Positions 37,208 to 58,791 of a stretch of DNA of 64,000 nucleotides are shown piece after piece. The DNA comes from a virus. A program made the position numbers and the translations under genes. The stretch lies in IMG/VR virus record IMGVR_UViG_3300037231_000119, positions 32,001 through 96,000 of that record. The stretch is one strand, 5' to 3'. Every line of letters starts with the position of its first letter. Position 1 is the first letter of the stretch. The notes under the pieces were generated by a model. That model was not told the origin of the DNA. It ran no database searches and worked only from the letters and a program-made list of their open reading frames with translations.

Positions 37208-37780
37208 TTATCCAGGAAGCTTCGGTTTTGGTTGGGCCTTGATTCCTTCAAGACGTTCTTTATGGGCATCTTTGGAGCCTTCTTTTGCGATCATTTCGCC
37301 AATACCATCGCCAGATTTTCCGTAACCAACAGCGCGTTTTGCACGATCACCGGCAATAGGATTTAGAGGATCCTCGCCTTTATCCATTTCCTTAGCCTTA
37401 GACCCCTTTTTCATTTCCATTTTGCCCATAAATTTAGCCAGCTTATAAGAGCCCTTTTCATGATGCTTAGGATCTTGATTCGTAGCTTCATGCTGCTGAA
37501 CGTCTTGTTCAACCTTTTCACCAAGATCGGCATCGGCTTTAGCATCTGGGTTCTGTTCAGACATTCCCATTTTCTTCATAGGATCTTCAGATTTGCCCAT
37601 CTTAGCTTTAATGGCGCCGTCGATCTTATCAGCAGACTTTTCAGAATAGCCTTCTTTTTTGAGCTTAGAATGAATTTTAGCCCAATCGCCTTTAGCCAAC
37701 GTAGAGTTTTTATACATCTCTTCCGCTTTCTTCAAAACGGCGATGGCGGCTTCGGCTGGTGTAAATTTTTTATCAGACAT
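37208..37780 (-). CDS. Lys-rich putative internal head protein
   Basis: LAKG, MGKSE, MDKGE motifs; late motif at 37801. Confidence 0.65.
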   Translation of the reverse strand: MSDKKFTPAEAAIAVLKKAEEMYKNSTLAKGDWAKIHSKLKKEGYSEKSADKIDGAIKAKMGKSEDPMKKMGMSEQNPDAKADADLGEKVEQDVQQHEATNQDPKHHEKGSYKLAKFMGKMEMKKGSKAKEMDKGEDPLNPIAGDRAKRAVGYGKSGDGIGEMIAKEGSKDAHKERLEGIKAQPKPKLPG

Positions 37781-37816
37781 AGGTAGTCTCCATATAGGTC
37801 TAAGATTGGATTAAAG

Positions 37817-38137
37817 CTATTTCTTAGCCCCTTGTTTCGATAAGAAGCTATGGAGCGCCTGTATACTCGGCTTCTTAAACTCTTGATTTTGTTCACTTTT
37901 ATAGAATTGGCTCGGTTTGTCAGTAGCTTGGCCTGGTTTTTTAGCCTTGGCGGTCTTTACGACTGCTTGAGCGCCAACCCTGGTAGGGCTAGCCGTATTG
38001 GACTGAGTGGGCGATATTACACCAGCTACAGGGGTCAGTTTTGTAGGGGTAAGTCCAGCCATAGCAGCTTTGGCCAGAACTTCAGTCTTTTGAAGGACTA
38101 GGATTGCAACTTGTTGAGGGGTAAAGATTTTGGCCAT
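37817..38137 (-). CDS. Putative internal head protein, paralogous N-terminus to 37208..37780
   Basis: KIFTPQQVAILVLQK vs KKFTPAEAAIAVLKK. Confidence 0.65.
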   Translation of the reverse strand: MAKIFTPQQVAILVLQKTEVLAKAAMAGLTPTKLTPVAGVISPTQSNTASPTRVGAQAVVKTAKAKKPGQATDKPSQFYKSEQNQEFKKPSIQALHSFLSKQGAKK

Positions 38138-38154
38138 ATAGGGTAAAGATTGGA

Positions 38155-39144: not shown

Positions 39145-39148
39145 TTAC

Positions 39149-39964
39149 TTACCCCTTATATTTCTGCAAGATCGCTGGAAGGACACTATTATTCCATTCA
39201 TTTTGGGCCCACTCTGCGGCATCTGGGAAAAATCCCTTAGCGTTTTGAGCCGGATATTGCCACTTCCCATCATCGCCTTCTATGACAGTTCTGAAGGTAG
39301 TCATTACTTTCTTAGCGTTACCATTCTTATTCAAAACCTGATATATGTGGAGCCTTGCGAGTTGCTCGGTATTTCCACGCCCCGGTATCTTACTTGGAAT
39401 GTCAAAAACATGTAAGGGGAGAGGATGTCCATTAGGCCCCATTTTACTTATTCTCGGGCTCCCATTAGAATCCTTTTCAATTCCGCTCCACGAAAGCTTT
39501 TGACCTTTTAGAAAACCTTTGATACTTCCAATAAGCTCCTCATTCTTAGCAAGAGTCTTAATATTCAAACTGTCGGATTCTTTACCTTGTGGCATTGGAA
39601 TAATTTTGTAATGCTTGCCTTTATTAGGGCCATTCTTAACAGTCTCAGAATCTTTCAAGAGACCGTATTCTCCAGGCTTACCCTTCATATCCCACGGCTT
39701 ACCTTCTTCGATAGGAACTGCCGGTTCATTTAACGTGATCTCCCAAAGAAAGTCGCTGATTTGTACGGCTTGGCTTAGACTAGCTAGATATTTTTTTGCA
39801 ATCTGAGTATTTAGCTTTTGTCCCACCTCTTTTACCATGTTGGCGTGGGTAGCTTCCGCAAGCCCCTTAATACCTTTTTGAACATCCTTCGCGATTTCTT
39901 TTGCAAAGTTATTCAGGTATTGGGTTAAAGAGGAGATGTCTAGGTTGACTTTGATATCGCTCAT
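39149..39964 (-). CDS. Putative neck/tail completion protein
   Basis: IEEG..WDMK...LL...IIP...TFRTV...W.YP pattern. Confidence 0.65.
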   Translation of the reverse strand: MSDIKVNLDISSLTQYLNNFAKEIAKDVQKGIKGLAEATHANMVKEVGQKLNTQIAKKYLASLSQAVQISDFLWEITLNEPAVPIEEGKPWDMKGKPGEYGLLKDSETVKNGPNKGKHYKIIPMPQGKESDSLNIKTLAKNEELIGSIKGFLKGQKLSWSGIEKDSNGSPRISKMGPNGHPLPLHVFDIPSKIPGRGNTEQLARLHIYQVLNKNGNAKKVMTTFRTVIEGDDGKWQYPAQNAKGFFPDAAEWAQNEWNNSVLPAILQKYKG

Positions 39965-41151
39965 AGAATACCCATCATCTTCAATTTAGGCTCATTCCAA
40001 AGCTCAGCATTAGGAAATTGTGTAAGAAACCAATCCCATTTAATTTGGGAATGAGGTCTCATATACCCCTTAATTTCGACCCAAGTATTAGGCTCTATAA
40101 GAAATAGATCTGGGCGATATGTCTTAGCTGTCCCAGATTTGGTAAAAAGGGGCGTCGTGAATGTTTGGGGTTGCCACAAAAAATCAATCTTTTTGGAATT
40201 AAGGTAATCCACTACTTTGGGTTCGTAACCGGCCTGACAAATAAGTTCCTCCCCAGTTTTCCAGTGTATTTTTAGGGTAGTATTTTGTAGTTTTTTAGCG
40301 TGCGTTAATGCATATGAGGGATCCTGAGATAGATGTTCTACCCCATACCTCTCCAGATTAGTTTTCCTTATCTTATCTAGTTTTCTTTTGGGATGACCTA
40401 TAAATTCCGCTCTAGGGAGTGACCAGAATTCACCGTGGTCCTTGTCAACGAAACGTGCCGTTTCATTCAGCCCCGTGTAGGTAGTTTCGTCTAAAATAAA
40501 TTCGTCCCCGAACTTCTTTAATTTTAATCTTACCTCCTCAATATTCAATTTCTTACCCTCATTTGCCCTATCGGGATGCCCATGGCCATCCATAACTCTA
40601 GCTGGGGTAGAAATCCATTCTCCGTAATCTACATCCATAAATGAACATTCGCTACGAACTTTCGTATGAGTAGAATCTATTATAGAGACAGTATTGCCAT
40701 GTTTCTCAAAAATGATTTTTTTGATATTTCTCAAGGGGGTTTTTGTTCTGTCATACCCTCTTTGAGGATGACCTCTCCCCCTCAAAACACCAATAACTGT
40801 CGCGGGCCATTCCCCATAGTCGCTATCCACAAAAATAGCCTTCTTGTTTACATTTACATAAGATGTTCGCACAATACGTACCGTATCACCATGTACGCCC
40901 TGAATGCGCTTCTCGATATCATCCACAGAAAGTCTTTTCCCGCTAAACGCATACCTTTTTCTCTTTGGATGGCCCTTGCCGTCCCTATAAAGCGCTGCCG
41001 GAATTGCAGTGAAATTACCAAAAGCCTCATCTATAAAGACAGCGGTAGTTTTTACGTCTACGTAGGAGGATTCTTCCATCCCAATAACGTATGGAAGTCT
41101 TCCCTGGACTCTTTCTAGAACTTCCTTACATGTAAGCTTTTTAATACCCAT
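39961..41151 (-). CDS. Homing-endonuclease-like protein (repeats plus PD-(D/E)XK)
   Basis: Four D..YGEW..P......GHP repeats; TNLERYGV; YRPDLFL...VEIKG. Confidence 0.85.
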   Translation of the reverse strand: MGIKKLTCKEVLERVQGRLPYVIGMEESSYVDVKTTAVFIDEAFGNFTAIPAALYRDGKGHPKRKRYAFSGKRLSVDDIEKRIQGVHGDTVRIVRTSYVNVNKKAIFVDSDYGEWPATVIGVLRGRGHPQRGYDRTKTPLRNIKKIIFEKHGNTVSIIDSTHTKVRSECSFMDVDYGEWISTPARVMDGHGHPDRANEGKKLNIEEVRLKLKKFGDEFILDETTYTGLNETARFVDKDHGEFWSLPRAEFIGHPKRKLDKIRKTNLERYGVEHLSQDPSYALTHAKKLQNTTLKIHWKTGEELICQAGYEPKVVDYLNSKKIDFLWQPQTFTTPLFTKSGTAKTYRPDLFLIEPNTWVEIKGYMRPHSQIKWDWFLTQFPNAELWNEPKLKMMGIL

Positions 41152-41187
41152 ATACTTATAATTTCATATACTTGAATATGTGTCAAG

Positions 41188-41415
41188 TTAATTCTTTGGG
41201 GGTTTTACTGGAGCGCCTGATTGAGGGTCCTTCACTCTGCCTTCCAACATGGAGACGAACCTGATATCTTCTGGATCGTTCGGATTTACCCATTTCATTT
41301 GCGACTTACTTGATAATCCGCCCGGTGGGATAGGGGTTTTTGCAACATGGACAGTAGTATGTTTGGAGGGTAATTTAGCTGCTGAGGGTAGTCCTGCTAC
41401 CCCACCGCTTTTGGG
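41188..41415 (-). other. -1 programmed frameshift extension of the 792-aa protein
   Basis: Slippery C-CCA-AAA (41415-41409); hairpin GGGTAG-CAGGA-CTACCC 6 nt downstream; 75-codon open -1 frame. Confidence 0.7.
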
Positions 41416-43775
41416 TCACTCTGACCCTCCGCTTTCGGTCCATCTGGCGCACCGGATTGTGTAGCTTCCGCGACCGCACCCGGATCCTGAGGTGCATCTG
41501 AACTCATCTTAGGCTCGAGACCTAAGAGTTTGCACAGCTCGATCATGGCCTTAAGCATCTGGATCGTGCTTTGGTAAAGTCCGGGACTTTGATCTTTAGC
41601 CTCTTCTAGGAATGCCTTATTTGCCTTAAATCCCTGTAACGTTTGGGATACTTGATCTATAACCTGCGCCCTCTTTTGTTCCTGCGCGTGGTCATCTAAA
41701 CCACCCTGGAGAACTCCAGCCATATCTGGTTCATCCTGGCCATCTTCAGCCATCGGATCTTGTCCCGATTCTTGTCCCAATTCTCCATTTTGTCCCGATT
41801 CCTGAGCCATCTGATCCGCATCGCCCTGTGTACCTTGATAGTCTGGAGAGGCCATACGATCGATCGGACCTTCTTCTCCGCCTTGACTTCCAGGGCAATC
41901 TGGACAGTTACATTCATGGTCGCTATTCTGCATGTCCTTTTCAGCATCTGAAACGTTATTCTTTTGCTTATCGCCAAAGTTTTCGGGGACAGAGGCCCCC
42001 TCTTCCATCTCGTCGCCTTGAGGAAGTTCAGTATTGTCAATCTTTTTAGCTTCAGCCTCAGGAGTTTGGTCACCCTCTCCTGGCTTCTGATCCAATAGGT
42101 CTAAAACTTCTTCAGCCGTTTCATGTCCTTGTAGATTGGGATCTTCTTGGCCAGTTTGATCTGGCTGCTCTTCGATAGCGTCCCCATACATCTCTTGGCA
42201 CTGCGGACAGTTGTCTGGTTGCTCGGCAGACATATCTTGGACACCCAAAGCGGTCGCATCATGTTTTGGGCAATTCGGGCAGTTACAAATATGGTCTACG
42301 TCTTGTCCTTCGGGAGTCCCAGCTTGAGCTTCTCCAACGGTTTCGGATTCACAATAAGGGCAACCATCTACGCCGCCAGCCTCATCGGGAGTATCTTGGC
42401 AGTATGGGCAGTCATCCTCTTCCGAACTTTCCTGACAATATGGACAATCATCCGTATCTATCCCACCAGTATTTTGCTGGGAAGCATCGTATTCCTTACA
42501 AGCATCACAATCATGCATCCCAGCCGAACCATCCGCATTTTCTTGAGCATCCAAATCTTGGCAATAAGCACAGTCGTCCGTACGGTTATCTTCTTGATCA
42601 GGATTCTGAAAACCCTTGTCTTCTTTGTCGGCAGCTCCGTTATGGAAGCCCTCTTCATGCTTATGAAGATTATGGGTATGTTCAGACTTATACATCTCGG
42701 GCTTAGACATCCCCGCCTTGGAATCAGATCGTAGTTCTGATGCTGGATCGCTGTGTTGGTACGCAGCTCGACTATGTTGGTCAGCTATTTTAGAATGGAT
42801 ATCTCTATGTGCGGGATCCTTAGCTCTTTCTTTGCTACCGAACGCTCCTTGTTTTCCTTGATGAAAACGCCCCAGATCATTGTGAATTTTGGCCGCGTCG
42901 GCATGATCTTGCGGAGTGTATTTTAAAGTATTGGCAAACGCTTCAGATCGAAAATGAACCGGTTTCTTAGATTGGGTATGCCCCACAATATCGGAATCCT
43001 TGGGATGAACTGGTGCCGCATCCGAATCTGATTTATGAAGACCGCATGTATGTTCATACTTTACCATAGGCGCTGTAGTAGGTGCTGGGACTACGGTTAC
43101 CACGTGCCTCATTATGGCGCCATGTTTCTGATCTCTTTTATCCGCAGCACTATGTAAGCCCTTTTTACTTCCCACCGTTCCTTTATAGTGAAGAGTGCCG
43201 GTAGTGGGGCTATGAGAAGCTAAATGATATTTTTCGCCAGGCTTTAGATCTGGGGCGCCATAGAGACCGTGTTCACCTTCAGCTTTATGTAAATCGCACT
43301 TCATATTTTCGCTCTTTTCCAGATAAGCATCCGCAAGCTTCATCTCTTCTTGATTGGCAGTTTTAGCCTTAACTTTTTCGCGCATTTTATCAATGCCCTT
43401 TTCTACTTTAGGTCCATACCAAACCGTCTTATTCTTACCTGTAGCTTTGGCGTAGAGGAGACTTCTACCCGCTTCAGACAAGTCCTTACCAATACCAACT
43501 GAAATATTTAAGTCGGTGGCCTCGTAGTACTTACTTCTTAGCTCTTCCACATCTTTAGCGGCTTCAAACGGGATGCGAAAACTCCCCTCATCTCCACCAC
43601 CAGAAATTCTTTTACCACCACGCTCTGATACCCACTGATTAACGATCTCGTGACCCAAATCGATCTTGGCCGAGATATTGTGGAGAGCCTTCTCATCATT
43701 TGCAATGATGGCCTTACCGCACTGGCGACCAGCACCGTCCGCATCATAAGTAAGTCTGAGCATGGGCTTACTCAT
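41397..43775 (-). CDS. Head-module polyprotein: mCpol-like cyclase, His-rich modules, acidic CxxC repeats
   Basis: YDADGAG...GG.RISGGGDEG...ISVGIG..LSEA...L..AKATGKN; LEKSE/LHKAE/LHKSD/MYKSE motifs. Confidence 0.75.
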   Translation of the reverse strand: MSKPMLRLTYDADGAGRQCGKAIIANDEKALHNISAKIDLGHEIVNQWVSERGGKRISGGGDEGSFRIPFEAAKDVEELRSKYYEATDLNISVGIGKDLSEAGRSLLYAKATGKNKTVWYGPKVEKGIDKMREKVKAKTANQEEMKLADAYLEKSENMKCDLHKAEGEHGLYGAPDLKPGEKYHLASHSPTTGTLHYKGTVGSKKGLHSAADKRDQKHGAIMRHVVTVVPAPTTAPMVKYEHTCGLHKSDSDAAPVHPKDSDIVGHTQSKKPVHFRSEAFANTLKYTPQDHADAAKIHNDLGRFHQGKQGAFGSKERAKDPAHRDIHSKIADQHSRAAYQHSDPASELRSDSKAGMSKPEMYKSEHTHNLHKHEEGFHNGAADKEDKGFQNPDQEDNRTDDCAYCQDLDAQENADGSAGMHDCDACKEYDASQQNTGGIDTDDCPYCQESSEEDDCPYCQDTPDEAGGVDGCPYCESETVGEAQAGTPEGQDVDHICNCPNCPKHDATALGVQDMSAEQPDNCPQCQEMYGDAIEEQPDQTGQEDPNLQGHETAEEVLDLLDQKPGEGDQTPEAEAKKIDNTELPQGDEMEEGASVPENFGDKQKNNVSDAEKDMQNSDHECNCPDCPGSQGGEEGPIDRMASPDYQGTQGDADQMAQESGQNGELGQESGQDPMAEDGQDEPDMAGVLQGGLDDHAQEQKRAQVIDQVSQTLQGFKANKAFLEEAKDQSPGLYQSTIQMLKAMIELCKLLGLEPKMSSDAPQDPGAVAEATQSGAPDGPKAEGQSDPKAVG

Positions 43776-44689
43776 TTACGCCCTCTCAATACTTCTAGCA
43801 ACATTTCGATATTAGATTCATCCCAGCCACGACTAAAACGGAGCTGTACGCCATCCTGAGATTTTTTAAGCCAAATCTTTCTATGCTGATCCTGACCGAA
43901 ACATAGACAGCCGCTGTAGCCCGCAGTCTCACCGAATATGGTTTGTCCGCAGTCATTACAGGAAATCATTTCCGATTTGGCCATTTCAACTTTGAACTCT
44001 CTTGGTTTCTTCTTCCGTTCCAAGAACCCTTTGAGGGGAGATCCCTTTTTAGGGGACTCTTCTTTTTTGGTAATGTCGGAAGGCTTAACTTCGAGTGGCT
44101 TCGTCGTAATAGGGGGAATTGCGACGGAAGGTGTCGCAATACTAGGAGCTTTCATAGCCTCATTCAACTTAGCCATCATTAACTTATGAATAGCTTCTCT
44201 CTGCGCCATCTTATCTTCAACCACCCTGTTAACCAAAGAGTGAAGTTCCATACGTTCATCGATCAGCTTCTGAACCTTACGATCAATATCCTCTTCAACC
44301 TTCTTAGGCTTCGAGAGATCTTCCATGTCATAAAGCTCAAATGTTGAGAGTAGGATTAACCCCAATCCAGGGATAGAACGATTTTTAAAATCATATACCA
44401 ACTTATTATTATCGTAAACAGAGCCAGTGAAGTTGTCTGCGGAGTTTTTGTTAGCACTAACGTAAGCATTGGTACCAAATGGTAAGTGGATATCCTTATG
44501 AGAGTTTAGTTCCATTGGTTCCAGCTCAGAGATCAACATGGACATGACCGCTCTTGGTACGACCTTAAGACCAATCATGATCTCCATCGGATCCAAAACG
44601 GAATTGGACCCAATTTTATAGAGATCTGCCGACTTAGCGAGAGTCTCCAAAAACTGGTCATCTAAGATGTTAAGGAGATCGTTTTTCAT
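43772..44689 (-). CDS. Putative head protein with C-terminal zinc ribbon
   Basis: LAKS, MAKSE motifs; CNDC..CLC. Confidence 0.65.
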   Translation of the reverse strand: MKNDLLNILDDQFLETLAKSADLYKIGSNSVLDPMEIMIGLKVVPRAVMSMLISELEPMELNSHKDIHLPFGTNAYVSANKNSADNFTGSVYDNNKLVYDFKNRSIPGLGLILLSTFELYDMEDLSKPKKVEEDIDRKVQKLIDERMELHSLVNRVVEDKMAQREAIHKLMMAKLNEAMKAPSIATPSVAIPPITTKPLEVKPSDITKKEESPKKGSPLKGFLERKKKPREFKVEMAKSEMISCNDCGQTIFGETAGYSGCLCFGQDQHRKIWLKKSQDGVQLRFSRGWDESNIEMLLEVLRGRK

Positions 44690-46172: not shown

Positions 46173-46521
46173 TTGACCGTCCTAAACATAGTTCGGATAG
46201 CTCCGATAGCCTATTATCAGTGTTGGAATGGAGTCTAGCCAAACCCTTAATCACCTCATTGATATTGAGCGCCTTCTTTATCTTTTCGACTCGTCTTTCG
46301 AATTTGAGACCATCGAGTCTATTATTTGGATTGACGTGAATATCACCACTAAAGCCCTGACCCATTACAGCCATGATCTCTATCTGTTTCAAAAACGAAG
46401 CGATCTTTGGATCAAGAGGGTCATAGTTAACTTGAATCTTAGTAGCCCCCTCGATCTGCCTTACTAATGGCTTATCGATATTAAACTCAATCTCTTCGTT
46501 TCCAATGATCTTAATGCACAT
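46165..46521 (-). CDS. Hypothetical protein
   Basis: Operon coupling. Confidence 0.65.
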   Translation of the reverse strand: MCIKIIGNEEIEFNIDKPLVRQIEGATKIQVNYDPLDPKIASFLKQIEIMAVMGQGFSGDIHVNPNNRLDGLKFERRVEKIKKALNINEVIKGLARLHSNTDNRLSELSELCLGRSNE

Positions 46522-47015
46522 TACGAGATCCTAGCTTTCTTGAGACCTGAAGAGAGGGCTTTCTCGGAAACCGCACCACTCATAGCATGGACGAACTCTT
46601 TAGGGACTTCCAAAGACTGAAGGCAGAGAGAATTACCATGGATAGCGCCATTAGCAGATCCAACTTTGATATTCTGCTTGGTGATATAGAAATCGACATT
46701 TGCACCGTTTTGTACACTATATATGTCGTGACCAGACTTACGAAGATCATCTGAAAGAAAATGGGAATGACTCTCAGCTTGAAGCTTCAGACCTTCCGAT
46801 TTCATGATGGCTGGCTGGAAAGAATTATAGCGCTGTTCAATCGTATAGCATAGTATAGCCTGATGCGAAGCTGCTCCAAGAACCTCTTCCTCACCCTTAG
46901 CCCCAACTTTGGTTGCTAGGCAAAGCCCACCCTTCAATTTTATGAGGCTTACCTGCTTACCGTCCATAACTCCAAAAGGCTCTTTTGATGCAATCTGATC
47001 GTCTTCTATTTTCAT
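46521..47015 (-). CDS. Putative head protein
   Basis: IMKSE, LRKSG motifs; likely start MKIEDD. Confidence 0.6.
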   Translation of the reverse strand: MKIEDDQIASKEPFGVMDGKQVSLIKLKGGLCLATKVGAKGEEEVLGAASHQAILCYTIEQRYNSFQPAIMKSEGLKLQAESHSHFLSDDLRKSGHDIYSVQNGANVDFYITKQNIKVGSANGAIHGNSLCLQSLEVPKEFVHAMSGAVSEKALSSGLKKARIS

Positions 47016-47016
47016 A

Positions 47017-48660
47017 TTATTTCTCTTTTCCGTAGGCTTCTCTGACTTTTGCAACGTGCCAGTGATTTTTGATATCCTGTTTATTTTTTAAAGCGCCTTT
47101 TGTTCCCTGAATTCCATTCAGCCACCCATAGGCTAAATTGTCTGGATTGTTACCCAATACATGCTCCATATGGGATAGGTGCCTATCAGCGATGGTGTTT
47201 TCGAGACCCTTATGGTCGTTCATATAATTATGAAGCTGTTGACCCTTAAGCGCTAAAGCCTTGCCATGTTTTGAGGCCAAATCTTTATGGCCTTTGATAG
47301 TCTCTCTAATAGTTTCTGGCATCAATCCATAGGCGCCATACGCATGCTCAGCCCCATGAATTGGTCCACCACCTGCGGCATGATTCGTGTTTTTTCCACC
47401 ACTCGACTCAACAGAGGCGATAGCCCTAAGCATCTTAGCGTGGTCATAGTTTGATTTAGGTTGGGCGTGTTGAATGCTGGCAGGAGACCGATTTCCAGCA
47501 TCTGTTTGAGGAGCAGATCCAGCTAAGGCGCCAGCCATACCAAGTGCAATACCGGCATTTTTGAGTGCGCCTTTTTCCAAAGACTCGCTTTTATCAAAAT
47601 CTGGATTGTTAAGTCTAGCTCTAGCCTCTGAAAGATAGTTCGGACTTCCAGGCTTAGATTTCATTTTATTCTTTATTGGAGCCATTCTTTCAGCTTCGAG
47701 ATGCTCTAATTGCTGTCCCGACTCTCTCTTTATATCTTTAGCATGGCTGATATTTTTTGATCTGGATTGTTGAGAAGCCATCACGGAATTAAGCTCATCA
47801 CCTGCATTACCGGCCTTCGCTTTATTGGGACTAAGAGCGGCTATGCCCATAAGAGCGCCAGCGGTTTTTTCTTTCCAGCCCTTGTGGAGTTCACATTCTC
47901 CCTTACTCACTTTCTCAGGCAACTTCTTTCCCTTGGTCGCCTCATCCCATTCATGGACACCAGCTTCACCACCTAGAGCTTTTTCTCCATTAGGGGTGTG
48001 CGCCCATCTCTCTTGTGCTAGACTTTCGTAAGGCTTGGCCAATGGCTTCTTACCGAGAACATTTTCAGCTTTAGTAACCGGCACATTCACCTTAGCCGTA
48101 AAATCCGAATGATCCGGAAACTTGGGTTCGGCAGTATCGGCTTCGTGATGGTAAGTTTTGATAGTTTTGGGGCCCTTATTGAGAACTGCATTTCCAAAAG
48201 ACAATCCGGCTTCATGGGCCGTTTTTGCACCGGAAGATTTAATTTTATCCCAAGTACCTTTATCAACACTCACATGCGGAGACCATTCAAATTTTGAAGG
48301 GTGGCCCATATGAGCAAACTTTCCATTGTGCTCCTTCATCTTATCGGCCGAGTTCCCCTTTAATTTGACGACAAATACGTCGTTCCCATTACGATCTTTA
48401 AACTGGGCAGGCTCTATTTGCGTATTTTTAGCATCAGGGGGATTTAGTGGGAGATGTTGGGCCAAATCATGAATGGAGTGAAGATGGTCCTTTTCTTTAT
48501 TGAATTCTTTCAGACTAGCGTGATATCCAATGTTATTATCGGGCCTGTGAGTTTGGCCGTTGATCTTTACGGGATAGCCAAGAAGGATTCCCTCTGAGGC
48601 TAGTTTCGCATAACCGGCAGGATCTTCTTTTTTGTGGAGGTTAGGCGCATTTTTTGACAT
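47017..48660 (-). CDS. Head-module polyprotein: 2H phosphoesterase (Acb1-like) and lytic transglycosylase
   Basis: YHASL (H47) and PHVSV (H129); MLRAIASVESSGG...AYGAYGLMPET...LAYGW. Confidence 0.75.
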   Translation of the reverse strand: MSKNAPNLHKKEDPAGYAKLASEGILLGYPVKINGQTHRPDNNIGYHASLKEFNKEKDHLHSIHDLAQHLPLNPPDAKNTQIEPAQFKDRNGNDVFVVKLKGNSADKMKEHNGKFAHMGHPSKFEWSPHVSVDKGTWDKIKSSGAKTAHEAGLSFGNAVLNKGPKTIKTYHHEADTAEPKFPDHSDFTAKVNVPVTKAENVLGKKPLAKPYESLAQERWAHTPNGEKALGGEAGVHEWDEATKGKKLPEKVSKGECELHKGWKEKTAGALMGIAALSPNKAKAGNAGDELNSVMASQQSRSKNISHAKDIKRESGQQLEHLEAERMAPIKNKMKSKPGSPNYLSEARARLNNPDFDKSESLEKGALKNAGIALGMAGALAGSAPQTDAGNRSPASIQHAQPKSNYDHAKMLRAIASVESSGGKNTNHAAGGGPIHGAEHAYGAYGLMPETIRETIKGHKDLASKHGKALALKGQQLHNYMNDHKGLENTIADRHLSHMEHVLGNNPDNLAYGWLNGIQGTKGALKNKQDIKNHWHVAKVREAYGKEK

Positions 48661-49648
48661 CTGCCCCTCCTAAGAAATCTAGGCAACGTTGAATGCAGGA
48701 TTGTTTATCTAAATCCCAGTCCACCTCTTTGATATGGAGGATTTTAATGTCCTTAGTCGCAAAATGAGCATCCTTAAGGTCGTGGTAATTATAGACGTCT
48801 TCGTCTGGCCAATGTTTACGCGACCTTTTTAGGCCCTTAAAGGAATGATGATAGGTGCCATCAAATTCTATGCCAAGTTTTAGCTCTGGAACGTAGATAT
48901 CTATATCAAAACGTTTAATATGAGGTTTCCCCTCTATGCTAACTTTAGAACGTAACGTATTAGCGGTAGGAAAAAACGCTTTGACGTTATCCGAAAGCTC
49001 TTTCTCTTTAAGGGAAATGCTTCTTGATTTTTTCATATGTGAACATACAATATCCAGTATACCCAAATTTCTCGCTGCATCCCAGGCACCCGCCCCATAT
49101 TTTTTAAATTCCCCACGACTATTGTATTTTAGAGCCTCTTGATGGATCTTTTCTACCGTATCCCATTTGACTTCCCACAGGGGGGTCATATGAACACAAA
49201 AATCTTCTATTATTCCCTGCCTGTGCATCGCGCTATAAACACCCGGATGTAAATCTCTAAGTTGCTCTTTACTATTGCAAGTAAGTGCTATGCGCTTAAG
49301 ATCTTCTAGGGAATAAGCCTCATTGCACTTTTCGCCCATAAAGGCGCAAATATCGTCAAGCCACCCCATTCTTTGAGCTTTGTCGTAAGCTCCTGCACTG
49401 CCCCTAGCAAAAGAAGTTCTATCGGCATAATTATATGCTTCTTTTTGTACTTCCTCAAAAGTCTCCCATTTAGGTTCCCATAAGACTTCCATATGGGAGC
49501 AAATCCTGTCTAAAAATTCGGGACCTTTTCGCCAAGCTGCCTTATAAGCCGCATTACTATATTTTTGAAAATCAATACGGCTAAGATATTTGAGAGCTTC
49601 CGCCCTCAATTCTTCTGGTGTCCATCTGTGCCGTTTTTTAACGCTCAT
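48641..49648 (-). CDS. Homing-endonuclease-like protein (helical repeats plus Vsr-like nuclease)
   Basis: EALKY.SR.DF repeats; DIDIYVPELKLGIEFDGTYHH. Confidence 0.85.
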   Translation of the reverse strand: MSVKKRHRWTPEELRAEALKYLSRIDFQKYSNAAYKAAWRKGPEFLDRICSHMEVLWEPKWETFEEVQKEAYNYADRTSFARGSAGAYDKAQRMGWLDDICAFMGEKCNEAYSLEDLKRIALTCNSKEQLRDLHPGVYSAMHRQGIIEDFCVHMTPLWEVKWDTVEKIHQEALKYNSRGEFKKYGAGAWDAARNLGILDIVCSHMKKSRSISLKEKELSDNVKAFFPTANTLRSKVSIEGKPHIKRFDIDIYVPELKLGIEFDGTYHHSFKGLKRSRKHWPDEDVYNYHDLKDAHFATKDIKILHIKEVDWDLDKQSCIQRCLDFLGGADVKKCA

Positions 49649-51083: not shown

Positions 51084-51166
51084 TTTATACCCCTAAAATA
51101 GTTCTCTAAGTAAGATTGGCTTAAATTTTACTTGAAATGGTGCCAGATAGGCCCTATAGTCAGGTA

Positions 51167-51622
51167 ATGAAGCTTAAGATGACCAAAAGGGAAGTTATTC
51201 AAAAAGCAAAGAGGGTCCTGGAGCAAGAAGGGGTCACCTATGAGATTAAAGCCGAAGAGGCCTGTGGGTGGGCTTATCCCAAAGATAGCCATGTTATAGT
51301 CGGCACTCTAGGATACGACACTGATCAGTTGGCCTCAGTTTTTTGTCACGAACTAGCGCACGTATTGAATTTTAGGAATAGGAAGTACTTCAGATACCAT
51401 AATGGCGGTTTCGATTTTGATCTTTCTCCCGAATTGTGTAAAATGCGTATTCAAATCGGACTTAAAGCTGAAATATACACCGATATGGTAGCCAAAAAGC
51501 TTATGAGGAAGTATTACCCTGGCATGAAATTTATTCCCAGCTATTCAAAGAAATGGCAGCGCGATTGGTATCATAAAAATATCTTGGGTCAATGTAGAGA
51601 GTTTTTGGAGGGCGTGAAATGA
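51167..51622 (+). CDS. HExxH metallopeptidase-like protein (ImmA/IrrE-like)
   Basis: FCHELAH...AEIYTD..A. Confidence 0.7.
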   Translation: MKLKMTKREVIQKAKRVLEQEGVTYEIKAEEACGWAYPKDSHVIVGTLGYDTDQLASVFCHELAHVLNFRNRKYFRYHNGGFDFDLSPELCKMRIQIGLKAEIYTDMVAKKLMRKYYPGMKFIPSYSKKWQRDWYHKNILGQCREFLEGVK

Positions 51623-52470
51623 GTAAGTCTGTTGAATGTAATATTCCCTGTAAGCTATGTGGAAGTTTAGACATAGCGGTCGTATATAGGGAATGTAGCC
51701 ATATTAAGCCCTCCTATCATTGCAATAAGTGTGGCCATAGTAAAACCGTAGATGAGTGGATTAGTGCCCAATCCCATGAGGATTTAGGTAAGTGGGCGAA
51801 ACCACATATCTCCGCTATGGAAGAGATAATAAAAGAGCTAGCTACGGAAAAGTCAAATAAGGAACCCCGTATTAGTCCAGAAGACGTTGCATTTTTAAGA
51901 TCTTTTAATAAGAAAATTGAAGATCTAAATAAGGAAGAGAACGATAGGATAATCGGTTCAGTATCTCACGAGGCAATGATGGAGTGTTTAGCTACGGACG
52001 ACCCAAATAGGGTTACCCCAGAAACCGTTCTCGGGGCAATGAAAGAGGAGTCTGAAGCGATTAAAGAATATTATGAGGGGGTTAAAGGTGACCGAAATGC
52101 CTTCTACGACTCCACTCGGGCCATCCGCCACGATCAAAATAAGCCCCATATGGACCTTTTGAGTCCGATCGCCATGTTTGGAACTGCTCAAGTGTTGACT
52201 AAGGGATTGGAGAAATATCCTGGGAGTCAGTGGAAAAAGGGAATGGCGTGGTCCAAAGTTATTGCTTCTCTGTTAAGACACGCCTTTAAATTTATGGCAG
52301 GGGAAGACTTGGATTACGATCCAAAGTGCGTAGGGTGCCAAAATAAGAGCTGTAAGGAGCACACAGGGCTGCCTCATATAGACTGTATGGCCGTAAATGT
52401 GATGTTTTTACAGGAATATTACAGGAAGCACAAGAATTTGGATGATCGGATTAAGACGGGGTTGGAATGA
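51619..52470 (+). CDS. dATP/dGTP diphosphohydrolase (DUF5664) with N-terminal zinc ribbon
   Basis: HDQNKP.MDLL...VLT.G..KY....WKKG..WS...SL.RH...GED.D...TGLPH. Confidence 0.85.
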   Translation: MSKSVECNIPCKLCGSLDIAVVYRECSHIKPSYHCNKCGHSKTVDEWISAQSHEDLGKWAKPHISAMEEIIKELATEKSNKEPRISPEDVAFLRSFNKKIEDLNKEENDRIIGSVSHEAMMECLATDDPNRVTPETVLGAMKEESEAIKEYYEGVKGDRNAFYDSTRAIRHDQNKPHMDLLSPIAMFGTAQVLTKGLEKYPGSQWKKGMAWSKVIASLLRHAFKFMAGEDLDYDPKCVGCQNKSCKEHTGLPHIDCMAVNVMFLQEYYRKHKNLDDRIKTGLE

Positions 52471-52499: not shown

Positions 52500-53006
52500 C
52501 TATCTGTTGCTTTTTCTCATCTCAATTAGAAGATTCGTTATAGCTATCATTTCAATATAAGATATGGAATTATTTTTAATTAGATTGCATGTGGAACAAC
52601 AAGGAACCACATTGTCAGCATAGTAGTCTTTACTGTTATCTTTTCTGTCTAGGCCGTGCCCTGTTTCTGGGAGTCTTCCCTTGCAGTAATGGCAGGAGTC
52701 ATCTTCCACTATGGAAATCCATTCATCCAAAGTAATGTGCCAGCTATAGCCCCTATCTTTGGCAGCTATTATACCTCTTTTGAATCTACTTTTGTTCTTT
52801 CTAGCATGCCCATACGATTTTGCTCGTCTTTCATCTCTATTCGCTAAGTAGTATTTTTTAGATTGAGCGTTCAATTCTTCCCTATTAGAGTTGTTGCGCT
52901 CTATCGTACATTTTTGACAATAAGTCTGAACACCGTCTTTTCGGGCCTTATTTTTTTGGAAATCCCCGATATCTTTTTCTAAATTGCATCCTTTACAGAT
53001 TTTCAT
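52500..53006 (-). CDS. HNH endonuclease
   Basis: CHYC...GLDRKDNSKDY..DNVVPCC.TCN..K. Confidence 0.9.
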   Translation of the reverse strand: MKICKGCNLEKDIGDFQKNKARKDGVQTYCQKCTIERNNSNREELNAQSKKYYLANRDERRAKSYGHARKNKSRFKRGIIAAKDRGYSWHITLDEWISIVEDDSCHYCKGRLPETGHGLDRKDNSKDYYADNVVPCCSTCNLIKNNSISYIEMIAITNLLIEMRKSNR

Positions 53007-53121: not shown

Positions 53122-54525
53122 TTAGGTAAACAATTGTCCTTGCAAATTCTCGACGATTGCATTTTTCCGTGGCGCCTCTACTGCGAGCGTAGTCCACCTG
53201 TAAAAAGCATTGTTAATGCTCAATTGAGAGATACCGAGCTGAAGCTTTTTAAAGCCACTCAGTTCGCCCATGTGTCCCGTATCCTTCTGAATCAGGAAAC
53301 CCGTGAGAGCGCCAGGAGCCATGTTGCCAAGGTCCGTGAACGTCGCACCACTTGGGGCCGCCGCGATATTCCCGATGAAGAGAACACCCGGAGAAACCGT
53401 AGCTGCCACACCGGCCGCCGTACGATACACACGGTAGTAGAGAGCGCCAGCAGCCGCACCGATCGTCAGAGTGACCTTGTTACCAGCGAGAGCAGGCGTA
53501 ACGGTCGAAACGGCCGAGAGAGGCCCTTCACCGTAGGCGTTAACCGCAGCAACAGCGTACGTATACGCAGCAGCCTGAAGGAGAGACCCAGCGGCCCCGC
53601 CGTCAGCAGAAGCCAACGTAGGCTGAGCAGGAGCGCCCTGAATCTGGACGTTGATCGGATTGATCTGTTTACGCAAATATTGCGACATTTCCATACTGAC
53701 GGCACCTGAGCTAGTCCACTGCGTGCGAAGATGCGCGCCAGTAGCTTCCTGAGGTGAACCAGCGAGAACGATACGTTCCTTAGCCTGGCTGATCTTGTTA
53801 TAAGCAGAGAGGCTGGAAGGATCCAACATCAGCTTGTCCGCGCGACCCATGTTAAGGGCAGAACGAACCGAGATATCTTCGATCAGGGACTGCGTAAGAG
53901 CAGCGCCACCAGCCGAGAACACAACCGTTGCGCTCGAACCGTACGAAGCGAACATCAGATCCTGTCCATTGCGCTCGAAATCCGAGGCGCGAACCTGGAG
54001 ATCCCAACCACGCATATTGGCGAGAGCAGGAACTAGGGCAGGATTGCCATCGAAGACTCCGTTGTTTGAGAAATCAGAGTTACCAGAGAACAGGTCGAAC
54101 TCGATGTCCTGAGCAAGGTTAAGGGCCGCATCCTGAGCTTGGCGCTCTTCAGCAGTCACCTTGTCAAACGTTTCAACAGCGTTCGCAACGAGCGAATGTT
54201 CGCGTGTATCGACGTAGTACGCCATTGGGACCACGAGACGAGCAGCTTGGCCAGTCTTTTTCGCGCCCAGCATACCTTCGTAAGCCGCTGATCCGCCGAA
54301 ACGGCCGACAGACAATTTACGATTGTACTGATAGAGATTCGACTTCGTATTACGAACATCGAGCATCTTCTGCAGTTTGATGGTCTCTTCGGCAGCCGTG
54401 ACATTGATCATCACTGGAGCCAGATCTTCGATTTGATAAGCAGCGCCCTGTACGAGGGTAGAAGGGGCGGCATTATATGAACCCGCTTCGAGTGCCTTCA
54501 TCAGAGTTTGGAGTTGGTCTAACAT
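53122..54525 (-). CDS. Major capsid protein (SPO1/Herelleviridae-like)
   Basis: MKALEAG...GAAYQIEDL...IEFDLFSG; strong codon bias; follows scaffold. Confidence 0.9.
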   Translation of the reverse strand: MLDQLQTLMKALEAGSYNAAPSTLVQGAAYQIEDLAPVMINVTAAEETIKLQKMLDVRNTKSNLYQYNRKLSVGRFGGSAAYEGMLGAKKTGQAARLVVPMAYYVDTREHSLVANAVETFDKVTAEERQAQDAALNLAQDIEFDLFSGNSDFSNNGVFDGNPALVPALANMRGWDLQVRASDFERNGQDLMFASYGSSATVVFSAGGAALTQSLIEDISVRSALNMGRADKLMLDPSSLSAYNKISQAKERIVLAGSPQEATGAHLRTQWTSSGAVSMEMSQYLRKQINPINVQIQGAPAQPTLASADGGAAGSLLQAAAYTYAVAAVNAYGEGPLSAVSTVTPALAGNKVTLTIGAAAGALYYRVYRTAAGVAATVSPGVLFIGNIAAAPSGATFTDLGNMAPGALTGFLIQKDTGHMGELSGFKKLQLGISQLSINNAFYRWTTLAVEAPRKNAIVENLQGQLFT

Positions 54526-54556
54526 ATTGATTTTCCTTTTCTAAAAATTGCCAGTA

Positions 54557-55462
54557 CTACTTAAGTAGATGGCGGACAGATTCGACATTTTTACTAAAAT
54601 AGTAACTGTTAATGGCATCACGATCGGACTTAGTCAGAGAAACATCTTTTGCTTTAGCCAGAAGCTTCGCATCGATTTCACTCTTAGTAAGAGGTTTTTC
54701 GTTTTGGCCGCTTTCGGTCTTAGCGATGATATCCAGGGATGTAATCGCTTTACCGGCAGGAGCAGTTTTCTCAACGAATTTTTTCAGGAAGGCAGCAACA
54801 GCGGCAGTCTCAGCCTTAGCAGCTTCGAGTTCCGACTTAAGCATGCTAATTTCCATAGAAGGTTCTGATTTTTCGAGAGCTTGAGCACCGGTAGAAGCGG
54901 GACCTTTGCCTTCTTTTTCAGATTGACCGTCTTTAGGGCCACCGTTAGGACGGTAACCTTCAGCATCTTTAGCGCAATCTTCCATCTCAGCTTTAGCCAT
55001 GCCATCTTCGCATTTAGCCATGCCCATGCCTTCTAGGCACTTTCTCACAGCGTCATGATGAGCCTTCAGTTCAGGCTTAGACATCGAAGAGTACATCGAG
55101 TGCATGTGACCCATATCTTCGTCGTCGTAACCATGATCTTCATCGGCAGGCGCAGCACCATCTTTGGCCGCCATACCTGGCTGTTCTTGATCGTTTTCGC
55201 CTGGCTTATCTTCAGATTGCTGATCTTGATCCTTGACGCCCTTATCTTCGGGCTTTTCGGTTTCCATCGGCTTCTTTTCTTCGCCACTTGATTCGCTAGA
55301 AGCCTTCTTCTCGTCCTCTTTCTTAGATTCATCCTTTTTGGGAGGAAACTCGGATTTGGCGAGACCAAAACTTTTTTCAGCTTTGGCAAGATGCTTCGAA
55401 AATTCTTTTTCCACATCGGCCATCAGGCTTGAAAGTTGTTGTTCGTCGTACATGATTTTCAT
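54557..55462 (-). CDS. Scaffold protein
   Basis: Charged low-complexity protein with many LxKS/MAKxE motifs, directly upstream of MCP. Confidence 0.75.
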   Translation of the reverse strand: MKIMYDEQQLSSLMADVEKEFSKHLAKAEKSFGLAKSEFPPKKDESKKEDEKKASSESSGEEKKPMETEKPEDKGVKDQDQQSEDKPGENDQEQPGMAAKDGAAPADEDHGYDDEDMGHMHSMYSSMSKPELKAHHDAVRKCLEGMGMAKCEDGMAKAEMEDCAKDAEGYRPNGGPKDGQSEKEGKGPASTGAQALEKSEPSMEISMLKSELEAAKAETAAVAAFLKKFVEKTAPAGKAITSLDIIAKTESGQNEKPLTKSEIDAKLLAKAKDVSLTKSDRDAINSYYFSKNVESVRHLLK

Positions 55463-55497
55463 AATCAGATCCTCTATGTTTGATAGCTATCCGATTC

Positions 55498-56220: not shown

Positions 56221-56402
56221 TGAAATTCTCCTTGGAAATTTGTCTTTTTACGTAAAAACCATTTCAAACATTGAATATGGCGAACCCTTGGGTTTCAGCT
56301 ATTTAGATTGCCGTGTTAAGAAAAAACTCAATAAATTCAAATAGTTAACCATAAGCATTATTGGAATAAGCATGATCTATACCCTTTGCCAATCTTATTA
56401 GT

Positions 56403-56903
56403 ATGAAAACATGCACAAATCCGATATGCGATCAAATAAACCCCCAACCCTTAACGCAATTTTATAAAAAGAAGAGTGGGAGAGATGGACTAAATGGTAG
56501 GTGTGTAAAGTGTACCAATAAGCAAACAGATGCTTGGTGTGCCCGTAATACCGAAAAGGTGAAGGTTACCAAAAACAAATGGACGACCAACAATACAGAA
56601 AAAGTTAGGGAAAATGGCCAAAAATGGGATAAATTAAATCCAGGTAAAAAAGCCGCTCAAGTTCGTAAGTATCAGGCTTCTAAGCTTAATGCGACTCCCA
56701 AATGGCTTACTAAAGAACAACTTAAGGAAATGCAGGCCCTATATGTTGAAGCGGCCCTAAAAACCAGAGAAACTGGAATCCCCCATGAAGTCGATCATGA
56801 GGAGCCCCTACAGGGTAAGAATATCTGCGGATTGCACGTACCATGGAATCTGAAGGTGGTTACGAGGACCGAAAACCGTAAAAAGAGCAATACGGGTAAA
56901 TAG
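56403..56903 (+). CDS. HNH endonuclease
   Basis: ATPKWL...HEVDH..PLQGKNICGLHVPWNL...N..KSN. Confidence 0.9.
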   Translation: MKTCTNPICDQINPQPLTQFYKKKSGRDGLNGRCVKCTNKQTDAWCARNTEKVKVTKNKWTTNNTEKVRENGQKWDKLNPGKKAAQVRKYQASKLNATPKWLTKEQLKEMQALYVEAALKTRETGIPHEVDHEEPLQGKNICGLHVPWNLKVVTRTENRKKSNTGK

Positions 56904-56931
56904 TCCAATCTTATCCCTTAGGAGTGCTTAA

Positions 56932-58791
56932 ATGTCAACTTATATTTCGGGCGTAGCTAGTTGTTCCGCAATTGATACCGCTGGGGAAATTGTAGATATT
57001 AGCGGTCTCGACATAACCTCCTTAGCTCGTAGCGGTACTTGTAACTGGGAACACAAAGCCGACACCCCGGCACAAACAGTTGGCAAAATACTAAAGGCAA
57101 AAAAGATCTTTAGTGAAAAAGACTGTGAAGATTCCAATCAAAAACACTTTTGGGATAAAACCAAACTACCGTTCGTATATATAGTTGCGGAGCTTTTGGA
57201 TGATTATACGGCTAGTGCAAAAGAATGTGCTGGTCAGATGAGGTACAGTAAGGACCATCCCGAACTATCGGCAATTTTAGGATTTTCCGTTGAAGGAAGT
57301 GAAATACCCGGAACCAGGAAAAATTCCATGCTGATCACACGATCGATTGCAAGAAAGGTTACGCTTACCGTATCTCCAGCAAATAAGTTATGTATTGCTC
57401 AAATTTTCGAGAACCCAGAACAAAAATCCCAAGTCAAAGATGATTTTGAAGAATTGTTTCGTTCTGACCAAGAAGCTATCACTCTCTTCAAGTCAGGTGA
57501 AGGCGAAAAGATTTACGAATCCTATTTGGCCAAAAAAGAGCATGAGCCTAAGAAGCCGTGTAAACATAAGAAAATGAAAAAAGATGAATTTGGTTATCCA
57601 GATTCCCCTAAAACTTCAGCGCCCCCTCCAGAACCAAATAAAGCAAACGCCCAAGCTATGCAAAATGGCGCTGAATCAGGCGGTCCAAGTTTCTCTCAGG
57701 GCCTATCTAACCTGGCCAATGGCTTAATGGGTAAAAGTGAAAACTTCGGATGGTCTAAGGGTAAAGTGGATAAGGATAAAAAGGCAGTTCACTACGAACA
57801 CCCAACTCATGGCACGGTTTCCGTAATCAGACACGATAATGGCGATTTCCACGTAAAGCATCGTGGGGCTTTGGCTGGTGTTGGTGGAGTTAAGGGCTCT
57901 TTCCCTACTTCTGGAGAAGCCGGTACTCACGCTAAGAAATATATGTCTTCCTTAAGCCAGGGTAAAACTTTGGCACCACAAATGCATAATATTTCATCAA
58001 CGGACGTTGCGAGCAAAAAACATCTTAAAAAAGCCATCGATGCCGGTTCCTACAATGCCGCCCCCTCTACCCTAGCTTCCGGTGCCGCTTATCAACGCGA
58101 AAGTCTTGGTTCAAAGCCTGCAACTACTGGGGCTGAAGACCATAACTTTCAGGGGACTAAGAAGAAGGACTGGAATAAGAGATCGAAAGAAGATTACGAG
58201 AATTGGCCCCAAAAAGAGAAGTTTGAGAAGTTTATGTCTGCTAGAATGCCTCATTTGGCATTAGGCGAGATAAAAGCTCTGGGCCGGGCGATATGCTTGA
58301 AAAAGAACATCGAGGCGGAGAAAGCTCTTGGTAATTTGGTTTTGGGTAAGTCTGAAGAGGACCCCAAACTCGGCAATCATTTTCTTTTCAGTGCTGAAAA
58401 TCCAATGCATCCCCATAAAAATGAAAGCAGGATGGACCATAAACAGACCCTGGTACACTTAAAAAGTAAGGGTTTTGATGCCAATGAAGTTAAGGGGCAT
58501 TATGGCGCTCCGGAGACCTCGATCATGGTCCACAATGTTAATCCCAAACAGGCAGAGCATCTTCACGGAATAGCCTCCAAACTTGGTCAGGATAGTTCGA
58601 TCTATAGTAATAATGGCAAGCATGAGATGCGCTACCATCACGGTGAAAAGGCAGGAAAGTCCCATTTAGGTTCTGGTACCGAATTCCATAAAGAAAAGCC
58701 TAAGGATTTCTATACTACTCTACCTAATGGAAAACACTTCACTCACAATTTTGATTTTGATCAATTACATAATAGTAAAAAGAAAAAATAG
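56932..58791 (+). CDS. Prohead protease with C-terminal cargo modules including a SAM-lyase-like domain
   Basis: ISGVAS..AID..GEIVD..GLDI...NWEH...LGFSVEG...VTLT..PAN; C-terminal FSAENP..GHYG..E..LGQDS. Confidence 0.85.
   Translation: MSTYISGVASCSAIDTAGEIVDISGLDITSLARSGTCNWEHKADTPAQTVGKILKAKKIFSEKDCEDSNQKHFWDKTKLPFVYIVAELLDDYTASAKECAGQMRYSKDHPELSAILGFSVEGSEIPGTRKNSMLITRSIARKVTLTVSPANKLCIAQIFENPEQKSQVKDDFEELFRSDQEAITLFKSGEGEKIYESYLAKKEHEPKKPCKHKKMKKDEFGYPDSPKTSAPPPEPNKANAQAMQNGAESGGPSFSQGLSNLANGLMGKSENFGWSKGKVDKDKKAVHYEHPTHGTVSVIRHDNGDFHVKHRGALAGVGGVKGSFPTSGEAGTHAKKYMSSLSQGKTLAPQMHNISSTDVASKKHLKKAIDAGSYNAAPSTLASGAAYQRESLGSKPATTGAEDHNFQGTKKKDWNKRSKEDYENWPQKEKFEKFMSARMPHLALGEIKALGRAICLKKNIEAEKALGNLVLGKSEEDPKLGNHFLFSAENPMHPHKNESRMDHKQTLVHLKSKGFDANEVKGHYGAPETSIMVHNVNPKQAEHLHGIASKLGQDSSIYSNNGKHEMRYHHGEKAGKSHLGSGTEFHKEKPKDFYTTLPNGKHFTHNFDFDQLHNSKKKK

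Follow-up and report, generated by a model that had tools for sequence, protein, structure and literature searches.

We analysed a stretch of viral DNA of 64,000 nucleotides (hereafter, the window), which corresponds to bases 32001-96000 of the IMG/VR record IMGVR_UViG_3300037231_000119, a genome of 162,446 bp rated complete by CheckV. The window covers the block of late structural genes of an uncultured, complete myophage of 162 kb, a distant kin of the Myxococcus phage Mx1. At positions 37208-58791, a short peptide motif is shared by the major capsid protein (MCP), the scaffolding protein, the prohead protease and a series of late proteins with enzyme-like modules. With a probability of roughly 0.6, these motif-linked late enzymes are packed in the phage head, cut apart by the prohead protease and injected into the host, where they could blunt bacterial immunity. 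The argument is built on the statistics, the conservation and the placement of the motif, on the folds and key residues of the modules, and on the swapping of these modules among relatives.

From such evidence we infer cleavage, head packaging and ejection, together with the activities of the enzymes, their targets and a role in counter-defence. In the mechanism that we propose, the protease site would serve to trim 10 residues off the MCP, to break up the scaffold and to cut the protease itself. The linkers of several other late proteins, each a chain of independent modules, hold the same site. These cargo chains would join the assembling prohead and be split there into their single domains. 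The protease would enter the prohead through a copy of the N-terminal segment of the MCP, and other cargo may rely on a short leader at the N-terminus that has the motif at its end, comparable to the capsid-targeting sequence of phage T4. Once freed, the folded domains would be too large to exit the shell, would stay with the DNA and would leave with it when the next cell is infected. Delivered in this way would be a nucleotide cyclase (mCpol), a phosphodiesterase of the 2H type, a lytic transglycosylase preceded by a hydrophobic leader, an S-adenosylmethionine (SAM)-lyase-like domain and small basic proteins. The notion, already present in the original prediction for this DNA, that they act before any transcription is purely conjectural.

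A motif shared by head proteins and late proteins with enzyme-like modules

The head genes and the sites that they carry are as follows (↓ marks the bond presumed to be cut):

56932-58791, plus strand: prohead protease, 619 aa (core at residues 1-180, variable linker, copy of the MCP N-terminus, C-terminal cargo domain)
57484-57498, plus strand: LFKSG, protease residues 185-189, candidate self-cleavage site right after the protease core
58024-58233, plus strand: LKKAI site and copy of MCP residues 7-76, protease residues 365-434
58342-58356, plus strand: LGKSE, protease residues 471-475, junction between the conserved protease body and its cargo
58369-58776, plus strand: SAM-lyase-like domain, protease residues 480-615 (Pfam PF23780, 28.6 bits for a cut-off of 28)
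54557-55462, minus strand: scaffolding protein, 301 aa, encoded between protease and MCP and holding seven sites of the strict motif
53122-54525, minus strand: MCP, 467 aa (phrog_752, E 1.9e-38)
54484-54504, minus strand: LMK↓ALEAG, MCP residues 8-14, predicted release of a 10-residue propeptide

The original prediction described the motif as phi-x-K-[S/A/G], and every instance that it listed was found in the gene named: LMKA at residue 8 of the MCP; LFKSG, MGKSE, LKKAI and LGKSE in the protease; LAKAE, LAKSE, LEKSE, MLKSE and LTKSE in the scaffold, which additionally holds MAKAE and LTKSD; and motifs in six other open reading frames (ORFs). The shared motif is thus real, but its loose form turned out to be mostly noise, with 55 occurrences observed against 31.3 ± 5.4 in composition-preserving shuffles, a mere 1.8-fold excess. 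The specific signal is phi-x-K-[S>A]-[E>D]. The form phi-x-K-S-E occurs 14 times in the 6,925 aa encoded at 37208-58791, compared with 0.8 ± 0.9 in shuffled sequences (0 of 2000 shuffles reach 14) and with 4 in the 43,763 aa of the rest of the genome, which makes a 22-fold excess for the region (binomial p = 1.4e-9). This count falls from 14 to 13 once one gene start is corrected, given that the MQKSE at the beginning of ORF 46521-47054 is an artefact of choosing the longest, TTG-initiated frame and is not conserved by relatives. The strict motif is absent from both the tail sheath and a 1373-aa tail protein. We treated as background the LLKSE of ORF 32392-33486, whose product is a zinc-finger protein resembling homing endonucleases, as well as three more phi-x-KSE elsewhere in the genome.

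In the relatives, the motif persists in the orthologues of the same genes, with none elsewhere in their loci. An alignment of the scaffolds keeps K198-S-E, K209-S-E and K278-S-D invariant as far as Mx1, where the overall identity has dropped to 31%. Moreover, the motif carriers of Mx1 include the scaffold, a 1479-aa 'NUDIX' polyprotein, a 'kinase' and five more late proteins. Judging from these counts and alignments, the shared motif is real and under selection.

The prohead protease, its predicted cleavage site and its proposed cargo

The protease gene adjoins those of the scaffold and the MCP in a neighbourhood that Mx1 shares. Its product matches the head maturation protease family PHROG 1028 at residues 2-43 only, and its core gave no Pfam or PDB match by sequence search. 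Residues H41, S119 and E121 are invariant in 61 relatives, and a counterpart of the LFKSG site is kept as [ILM]FKS[EDG] at around residues 173-195 throughout the protease family. A predicted cut after the lysine is favoured because it is the only register that fits both the MCP site (LMK↓ALEAG in the window and LRK↓AMEAG in Mx1, whose MCP reads LRKAMEAG at the equivalent spot) and the K-S-E sites. The enzyme, a putative HK97-like serine protease, would most likely cut after Lys in phi-x-K↓[S/A]-[E/D].

Two features of the protease bear on how cargo could be loaded. Residues 365-434 (58024-58233) correspond to MCP residues 7-76 (54298-54507), with the same site leading the segment, LKK↓AIDAGSYNAAPSTL. 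A search of the genome aligned the MCP and the protease with 47% identity across MCP residues 7-57 (E 8.5e-8), tblastn gave 38% identity over 70 aa, and the copy is kept in the relatives and in Mx1. A fragment cut at LKK would begin like the mature MCP, which suggests binding where the N-arm of the MCP binds, and the copied segment may be, on this resemblance, the way in which the protease and its fused cargo get built into the prohead. The protease of phage HK97 reaches the prohead via its C-terminal part.

The second feature is the seam at LGKSE471, where the conserved protease body comes to its end in the form ...LV-x-x-K-S-E. The proteases of two relatives finish just before or at this point and that of a third one 13 residues after it; beyond it, one relative carries an unrelated 85-residue tail and the window protein a 146-residue SAM-lyase-like domain. 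In this line, the 187 hits of the protease family range from 358 to 967 aa and show variable C-terminal additions, including GNAT, VTC and FlgM-like domains.

The SAM-lyase-like domain

Structure searches or profiles run module by module recovered all four folds that had been foreseen (mCpol, 42.8 bits; 2H, Z 8.2-9.7; lytic transglycosylase, Z 12.4; SAM lyase, Z 10.6). The model of the SAM-lyase-like domain is of high confidence, with a predicted local distance difference test (pLDDT) score of 95.2, and its top Foldseek match is the SAM lyase of phage T3 (E 4.4e-4, TM 0.61). An exhaustive VIA comparison with 48,161 chains gave the T3 SAMase at Z 10.6 (root-mean-square deviation, rmsd, 3.1; 118 residues aligned) and Svi3-3 at Z 6.1, with unrelated folds starting from 5.3, and a sequence search of the PDB gave nothing usable. 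The signatures G-x-Y, E-x-S and Q-[ED]-S are near-invariant in 52 sequences of the clade. In Svi3-3, the SAM-binding residues are Gly/Tyr, Glu-x-Ser and Gln-[Glu/Asp]-Ser (PMC7877911), a correspondence established by motif, not by residue-level superposition. The clade shares fold and key residues with the T3 SAMase and Svi3-3 but is distant from these characterised enzymes, structural alignments giving 11-17% identity. For relatives of the family, the substrate is SAM-AMP instead (PMC12255297), and the T3 SAMase also inhibits MetK (PMC8406200); by analogy, the domain of the window could equally cleave SAM-AMP or inhibit MetK.

This domain is widespread, with 580 representative proteins that measure 136-2570 aa; in very long chains, its place is often N-terminal. 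In Mx1 it is not found on the protease but in a 559-aa protein beside the sheath gene, syntenic with two small genes of the window (p190 and p106, see below). The domain profile was scanned over 150 representative proteins with no pair above 50% identity. Of 115 proteins, 56 (49%) have a strict motif in the 25 aa that follow the domain, and of 51 proteins, 18 (35%) have one in the 25 aa that precede it, when the motif density of those same proteins predicts about 7%. In the longest chain, the 2570-aa metagenomic protein P0405, the SAM-lyase-like domain is N-terminal and residues 1974-2085 form an mCpol domain, so that both modules occur there in one chain.

A chain with phosphoesterase and transglycosylase modules

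The clearest modular cargo protein, p547, is organised as follows:

47017-48660, minus strand: p547, composed of a 2H module and a small helical one, then a hydrophobic segment, then a lytic transglycosylase
48136-48630, minus strand: 2H phosphoesterase, residues 11-175
48064-48078, minus strand: VTKAE195, followed on the same strand by VSKGE251
47584-47598, minus strand: FDKSE355
47020-47460, minus strand: lytic transglycosylase, residues 401-547

The AlphaFold model of p547 has a mean pLDDT of 77, with two domains above 90, and VTKAE195 and FDKSE355 stand between these domains in segments below 50. The 2H module gave no Pfam hit by sequence. In structural comparisons it scored Z 8.2-9.7 over residues 23-174 with a CPDase, LigT, the rotavirus VP3 phosphodiesterase (PDE) and Usb1, and its top Foldseek matches are viral cGAMP PDEs and phage PDEs. 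Of its two H-x-S/T motifs, the one with H47 (YHASL) is near-invariant and the one with H129 (PHVSV) invariant, and the module shares fold and key residues with the 2H phosphodiesterases of the Acb1 type. The C-terminal module aligns 119-122 residues with Cj0843 and Slt70 over residues 404-547 (Z 12.4, rmsd 2.9), matches gp144 of phage phiKZ as well, and holds the E-S motif of transglycosylases (SVESSGG) after a hydrophobic stretch. The corresponding Pfam family (PF01464, SLT) gave 13.4 bits, under its cut-off of 21.3, and a PDB sequence search with p547 returned nothing usable.

The p547 family (131 hits, 300-946 aa) offers a broad view of the exchange of modules, with VTC, NUDIX, GNAT and SLT modules found between motifs. 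Its alignment contains 139 strict motifs in 78 members, which cluster at four positions: Lys10 (40 of 78), just past the first domain (~56), position 253 (26), where the window protein reads VSKGE, and position 357. One relative (P0003) is laid out as a 2H module, a motif at 190, a VTC domain at 214-462, motifs at 487 and 543 and a NUDIX domain at 626-735, and another (P0106) has the NUDIX and VTC domains in reversed order, each still bracketed by motifs. As read from these alignments, modules (VTC, NUDIX, GNAT) are swapped at the motifs among relatives, and the SAM-lyase-like domain rides on another carrier in Mx1. The proposal that the motif often falls at domain boundaries could thus be put into numbers for the linkers of p547, for the four positions of its family and for the flanks of the SAM-lyase-like domain. 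A programmed frameshift joining p547 with the next gene, p177, through an overlapping 'LQKSE' frame was discarded, as this frame is not conserved in the relatives L004 and L008 and an ATG stands directly after the p547 stop.

The mCpol protein and the smaller motif carriers

The remaining motif carriers are the following:

41397-43775, minus strand: p792, 792 aa, in which an N-terminal mCpol domain precedes a basic part, an acidic one (eight CxxC) and a C-terminal part that is conserved
43419-43751, minus strand: mCpol domain of p792, residues 9-119 (PF18182, E 7.7e-11, 42.8 bits for a cut-off of 26.4)
43293-43322, minus strand: LEKSE152 and LHKAE162, after the mCpol domain
46521-47015, minus strand: p177, truly 164 aa, with its ATG at 47013-47015, 13 codons past the TTG (MKIEDD...), and IMKSE between its two halves
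43772-44689, minus strand: p305, with MAKSE236 ahead of a C-terminal Cys-rich (zinc-ribbon-like) domain
37208-38137, minus strand: p190 and p106, small, basic, low-complexity proteins (pI 9.2 and 10.3) with LKKAE, MGKSE and FYKSE

The mCpol motifs YD[AG]DG (D-x-D) and SGGGDEG are kept in 30 homologues of p792, 20 of which have L-[EDK]-K-[SA]-E at the matching place after the domain. Fold and key residues are those of OptS, the mCpol protein of Panoptes; here they belong to a module of a phage structural-block protein. No effector of the 2TM-beta type (S-2TMbeta) paired with the mCpol was found among the neighbours, which are structural genes and a homing-endonuclease-like gene, and the mCpol of the window is not a Panoptes (OptS + OptE) system. 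Residues 364-792 of p792 (41397-42686) include an acidic stretch (pI 4.05, 26% Asp+Glu) with eight CxxC, mostly as D-C-P-Y-C-Q/E, for which similar repeats occur in relatives and no family match was found; it could be metal-binding or redox-sensitive.

The smaller proteins keep the motif over long distances. Orthologues of p177 have LMKSE (e.g., in L004) at the site of IMKSE and the 103-aa homologue in Mx1 has LSKSE, whereas the site of p305 reads IAKSE or IKKSE in orthologues and VVKSE, before the same Cys motif, in the 312-aa Mx1 homologue. A protein atlas search with p305 gave no match, and PHROGs assigned a family to none of the cargo proteins.

Mx1 itself (13002-17904; 24404-30710) encodes a 1239-aa 'prohead protease', a GGDEF-type 'nucleotide cyclase' two genes downstream and before the MCP, a 1479-aa NUDIX polyprotein with an SLT-like segment and a 619-aa kinase. 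The motif is shared by all these proteins, so that the cargo set of the cultured phage differs from that of the window.

Relatives and surroundings of the late block

Mx1 was the only relative within the phage collection searched. Its MCP is 46.7% identical to that of the window over the full length, the protease core is 34% identical to its 'putative prohead protease', and the gene order from the protease to the tail sheath is syntenic. An MCP scan of viral contigs, which retrieves close relatives only (the distant ones came from protein searches), found such relatives on 7 metagenomic contigs, with MCPs 87-94% identical to that of the window; despite these near-identical MCPs, their scaffold, protease and cargo proteins are just 42-66% identical to the window's.

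The late block is broken up by four homing-endonuclease-like or HNH-like ORFs (39961-41151, 48641-49648, 52500-53006 and 56403-56903), recognised by PHROG endonuclease families, DUF7487 and a weak match to REase_MTES_1575. Those at 39961-41151 and 48641-49648 adjoin cargo genes and are not part of the Mx1 order. Positions 51137-52470 lie on the plus strand within a head block otherwise on the minus strand, and encode a small HExxH protein (SprT-like, weak) and then a protein with PF18909, the N-terminal domain of dATP/dGTP diphosphohydrolases (E 3.8e-21), which may hint at editing of the nucleotide pool or at DNA base modification. Just past the protease, a 198-aa ORF at 59255-59851 with a weak Peptidase_M15 match (E 0.02) may represent an endolysin-type cell-wall peptidase, distinct from the transglycosylase module of p547.

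Weighing the explanations

Several observations weigh against packaging and injection as we propose them. The identity of the protease itself is drawn from a short PHROG match, synteny and a conserved His/Ser pair, and hhalign relates its family to HK97 gp4 weakly (E 0.073), with GFSVEG aligned with (M)SVGFSV. At the leader position, the p547 copy of the window reads NLHKKED, a non-canonical LHKKE; p792 lacks an N-terminal leader and no targeting signal was identified in it; and its Mx1 homologue has lost the GGDE motif, so that this protein should have some non-catalytic role and the domain need not be enzymatic in every case. Neck and tail genes are interspersed among the cargo genes, and some of the products, such as the transglycosylase, could be located in the tail. 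Finally, for both the window phage and Mx1 the whole scheme is deduced from genes and models.

Three other explanations have to be considered on this background. The enzymes might act late in the producing cell, destroying immune signals triggered by head assembly, with cleavage and packaging as incidental events or a form of disposal. They are indeed encoded by late genes, a phosphodiesterase made during head assembly would be useful, and two studies report that phage capsid-assembly proteins and prohead proteases activate CBASS, a defence against phages that signals through cyclic oligonucleotides (10.1101/2023.05.21.541620, 10.64898/2026.03.04.709575). We nevertheless see this explanation as unlikely: it does not account for the separation of the modules by the very motif of the scaffold, the MCP and the protease, for the frequent 10-residue leader that closes with the motif, for the inclusion in the same chain of a transglycosylase and its hydrophobic leader, or for the fusion of cargo to a protein that is incorporated into the prohead. 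The motif could instead be a short linear element for binding or assembly, e.g., one that touches the scaffold or the inside of the capsid and so tethers uncut proteins in the prohead, and its highest frequency is certainly in the scaffold, whose invariant KSE columns could be structural. The form of the motif, however, matches the experimentally known cut of HK97, it is placed in disordered linkers and at extreme N-termini and not on folded surfaces, and the proteins of relatives stop or exchange domains at it, all of which makes a mere tether highly improbable.

In many myophages, a cell-wall enzyme forms part of the tail tip, and some of the motif proteins, chiefly p547, could be tail or baseplate parts, in keeping with the position of the cargo genes between the head and sheath genes. 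They could also be cut by another protease, such as the SprT-like zincin at 51137-51622, an ORF with HExxH and weak SprT-like and M48 matches (E 0.006-0.06), and self-processing of the zincin type has been proposed for polyvalent proteins (PMC5512222). We hold either variant to be quite unlikely, since the p547 family varies between 300 and 946 aa by swapping of modules, which is unusual for a baseplate protein or one that determines length. In addition, the strict motif is lacking in both the sheath and the 1373-aa tail protein, and the zincin matches all fall under the Pfam cut-offs.

Packaging, cleavage and injection remain our preferred explanation, and a bolder version of it can be formulated, which we consider unlikely: the virion would carry a ready-made, matched 'write and erase' pair plus the SAM-lyase-like domain, all of them at work before any phage gene is transcribed. 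Signals of CBASS or type III CRISPR systems would fall to the 2H phosphodiesterase, mCpol would maintain a decoy nucleotide watched by Panoptes-type guards, so that the erasure does not spring the guard, and the SAM-lyase-like domain borne by the protease would meanwhile remove SAM or SAM-AMP.

Significance and comparison with known systems

If confirmed, this phage would provide possibly the first phage-borne mCpol cyclase and virion-borne SAM-lyase-like enzyme; limited literature searches gave no earlier report of a phage-encoded mCpol or a virion-borne SAM lyase. Moreover, a clade of environmental myophages of ~150-177 kb would be using one pentapeptide per seam to load and release interchangeable enzymes. 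The clade is large, with hundreds of protein clusters, and Mx1, the sole cultured member found in our search, can be used for experiments. Virion cargo would then be predictable from sequence alone, a natural system for loading foreign proteins into capsids would be at hand, and the results would bear on how phages handle guard systems like Panoptes that punish the erasure of signals.

The general idea is known already from the internal proteins and Alt of T4, the ejection proteins of phiKZ and the polyvalent proteins. In T4, a single short motif is the cutting site of the protease gp21 in the scaffold, the capsid protein, the protease's own chain, the internal proteins and Alt, and cargo is directed to the head by a leader of 10 residues (PMC9026906). 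The IPI-III and Alt proteins have this N-terminal leader of ~10 residues ending in the motif, and the ejected cargo includes the anti-restriction protein IPI and the host-modifying Alt (PMC9026906). In contrast, T4 cuts after Glu (L/I-x-E), whereas the window phage would most likely cut after Lys (phi-x-K↓S/A-E), and the T4 cargo is single-domain and loses propeptides only, whereas the window phage has several enzymes per chain, with sites between them, and cargo on the protease itself. The phages phiKZ and SPN3US (proteases gp175 and gp245) are likewise large myophages in which many head-internal proteins share a protease motif and are ejected (PMC9026906, PMC7411985, PMC10052503), but their motif is S/A/G-x-E, cut after Glu, and their known cargo consists mainly of virion RNA polymerase subunits and inner-body proteins, not of small-molecule enzymes in chains.

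The polyvalent proteins that Iyer et al. 2017 (PMC5512222) described for phages and conjugative elements combine several domains in one chain, are encoded among late or virion genes and have been predicted to undergo packaging and injection. Their repertoire already has 2H phosphoesterase, GGDEF-type cyclase, NUDIX, GNAT and lysozyme-type domains. The proteins described here are of this kind: p547 joins a 2H and an SLT module, its relatives add VTC, NUDIX and GNAT, and the protease carries the SAM-lyase-like domain. The processing of polyvalent proteins was, however, proposed to occur via embedded zincin-like (MPTase) or other peptidase domains, and not at prohead-protease sites delimiting modules (PMC5512222). 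The term mCpol is absent from the text of that work.

The closest precedent for the site itself comes from HK97, in which the cut of gp5, A-K-T-F-N-K103↓S104-L-G, has the same form as the phi-x-K↓[S/A] of the window, and the delta domain and gp4 hold further phi-x-K-[S/A] sites. The portion of gp5 that is removed is its 103-residue scaffolding domain (PMC10275583). HK97 gp4 and the window protease have His and Ser in similar local motifs, with marginal sequence similarity; HK97 differs in having no separate scaffold and no enzyme cargo, and a Glu/Asp at P2′ is not typical of its sites. What the window phage would add to all these systems is an HK97-like Lys site, the placement of such sites between the modules of multi-enzyme chains, cargo fused to the protease and a different set of modules.

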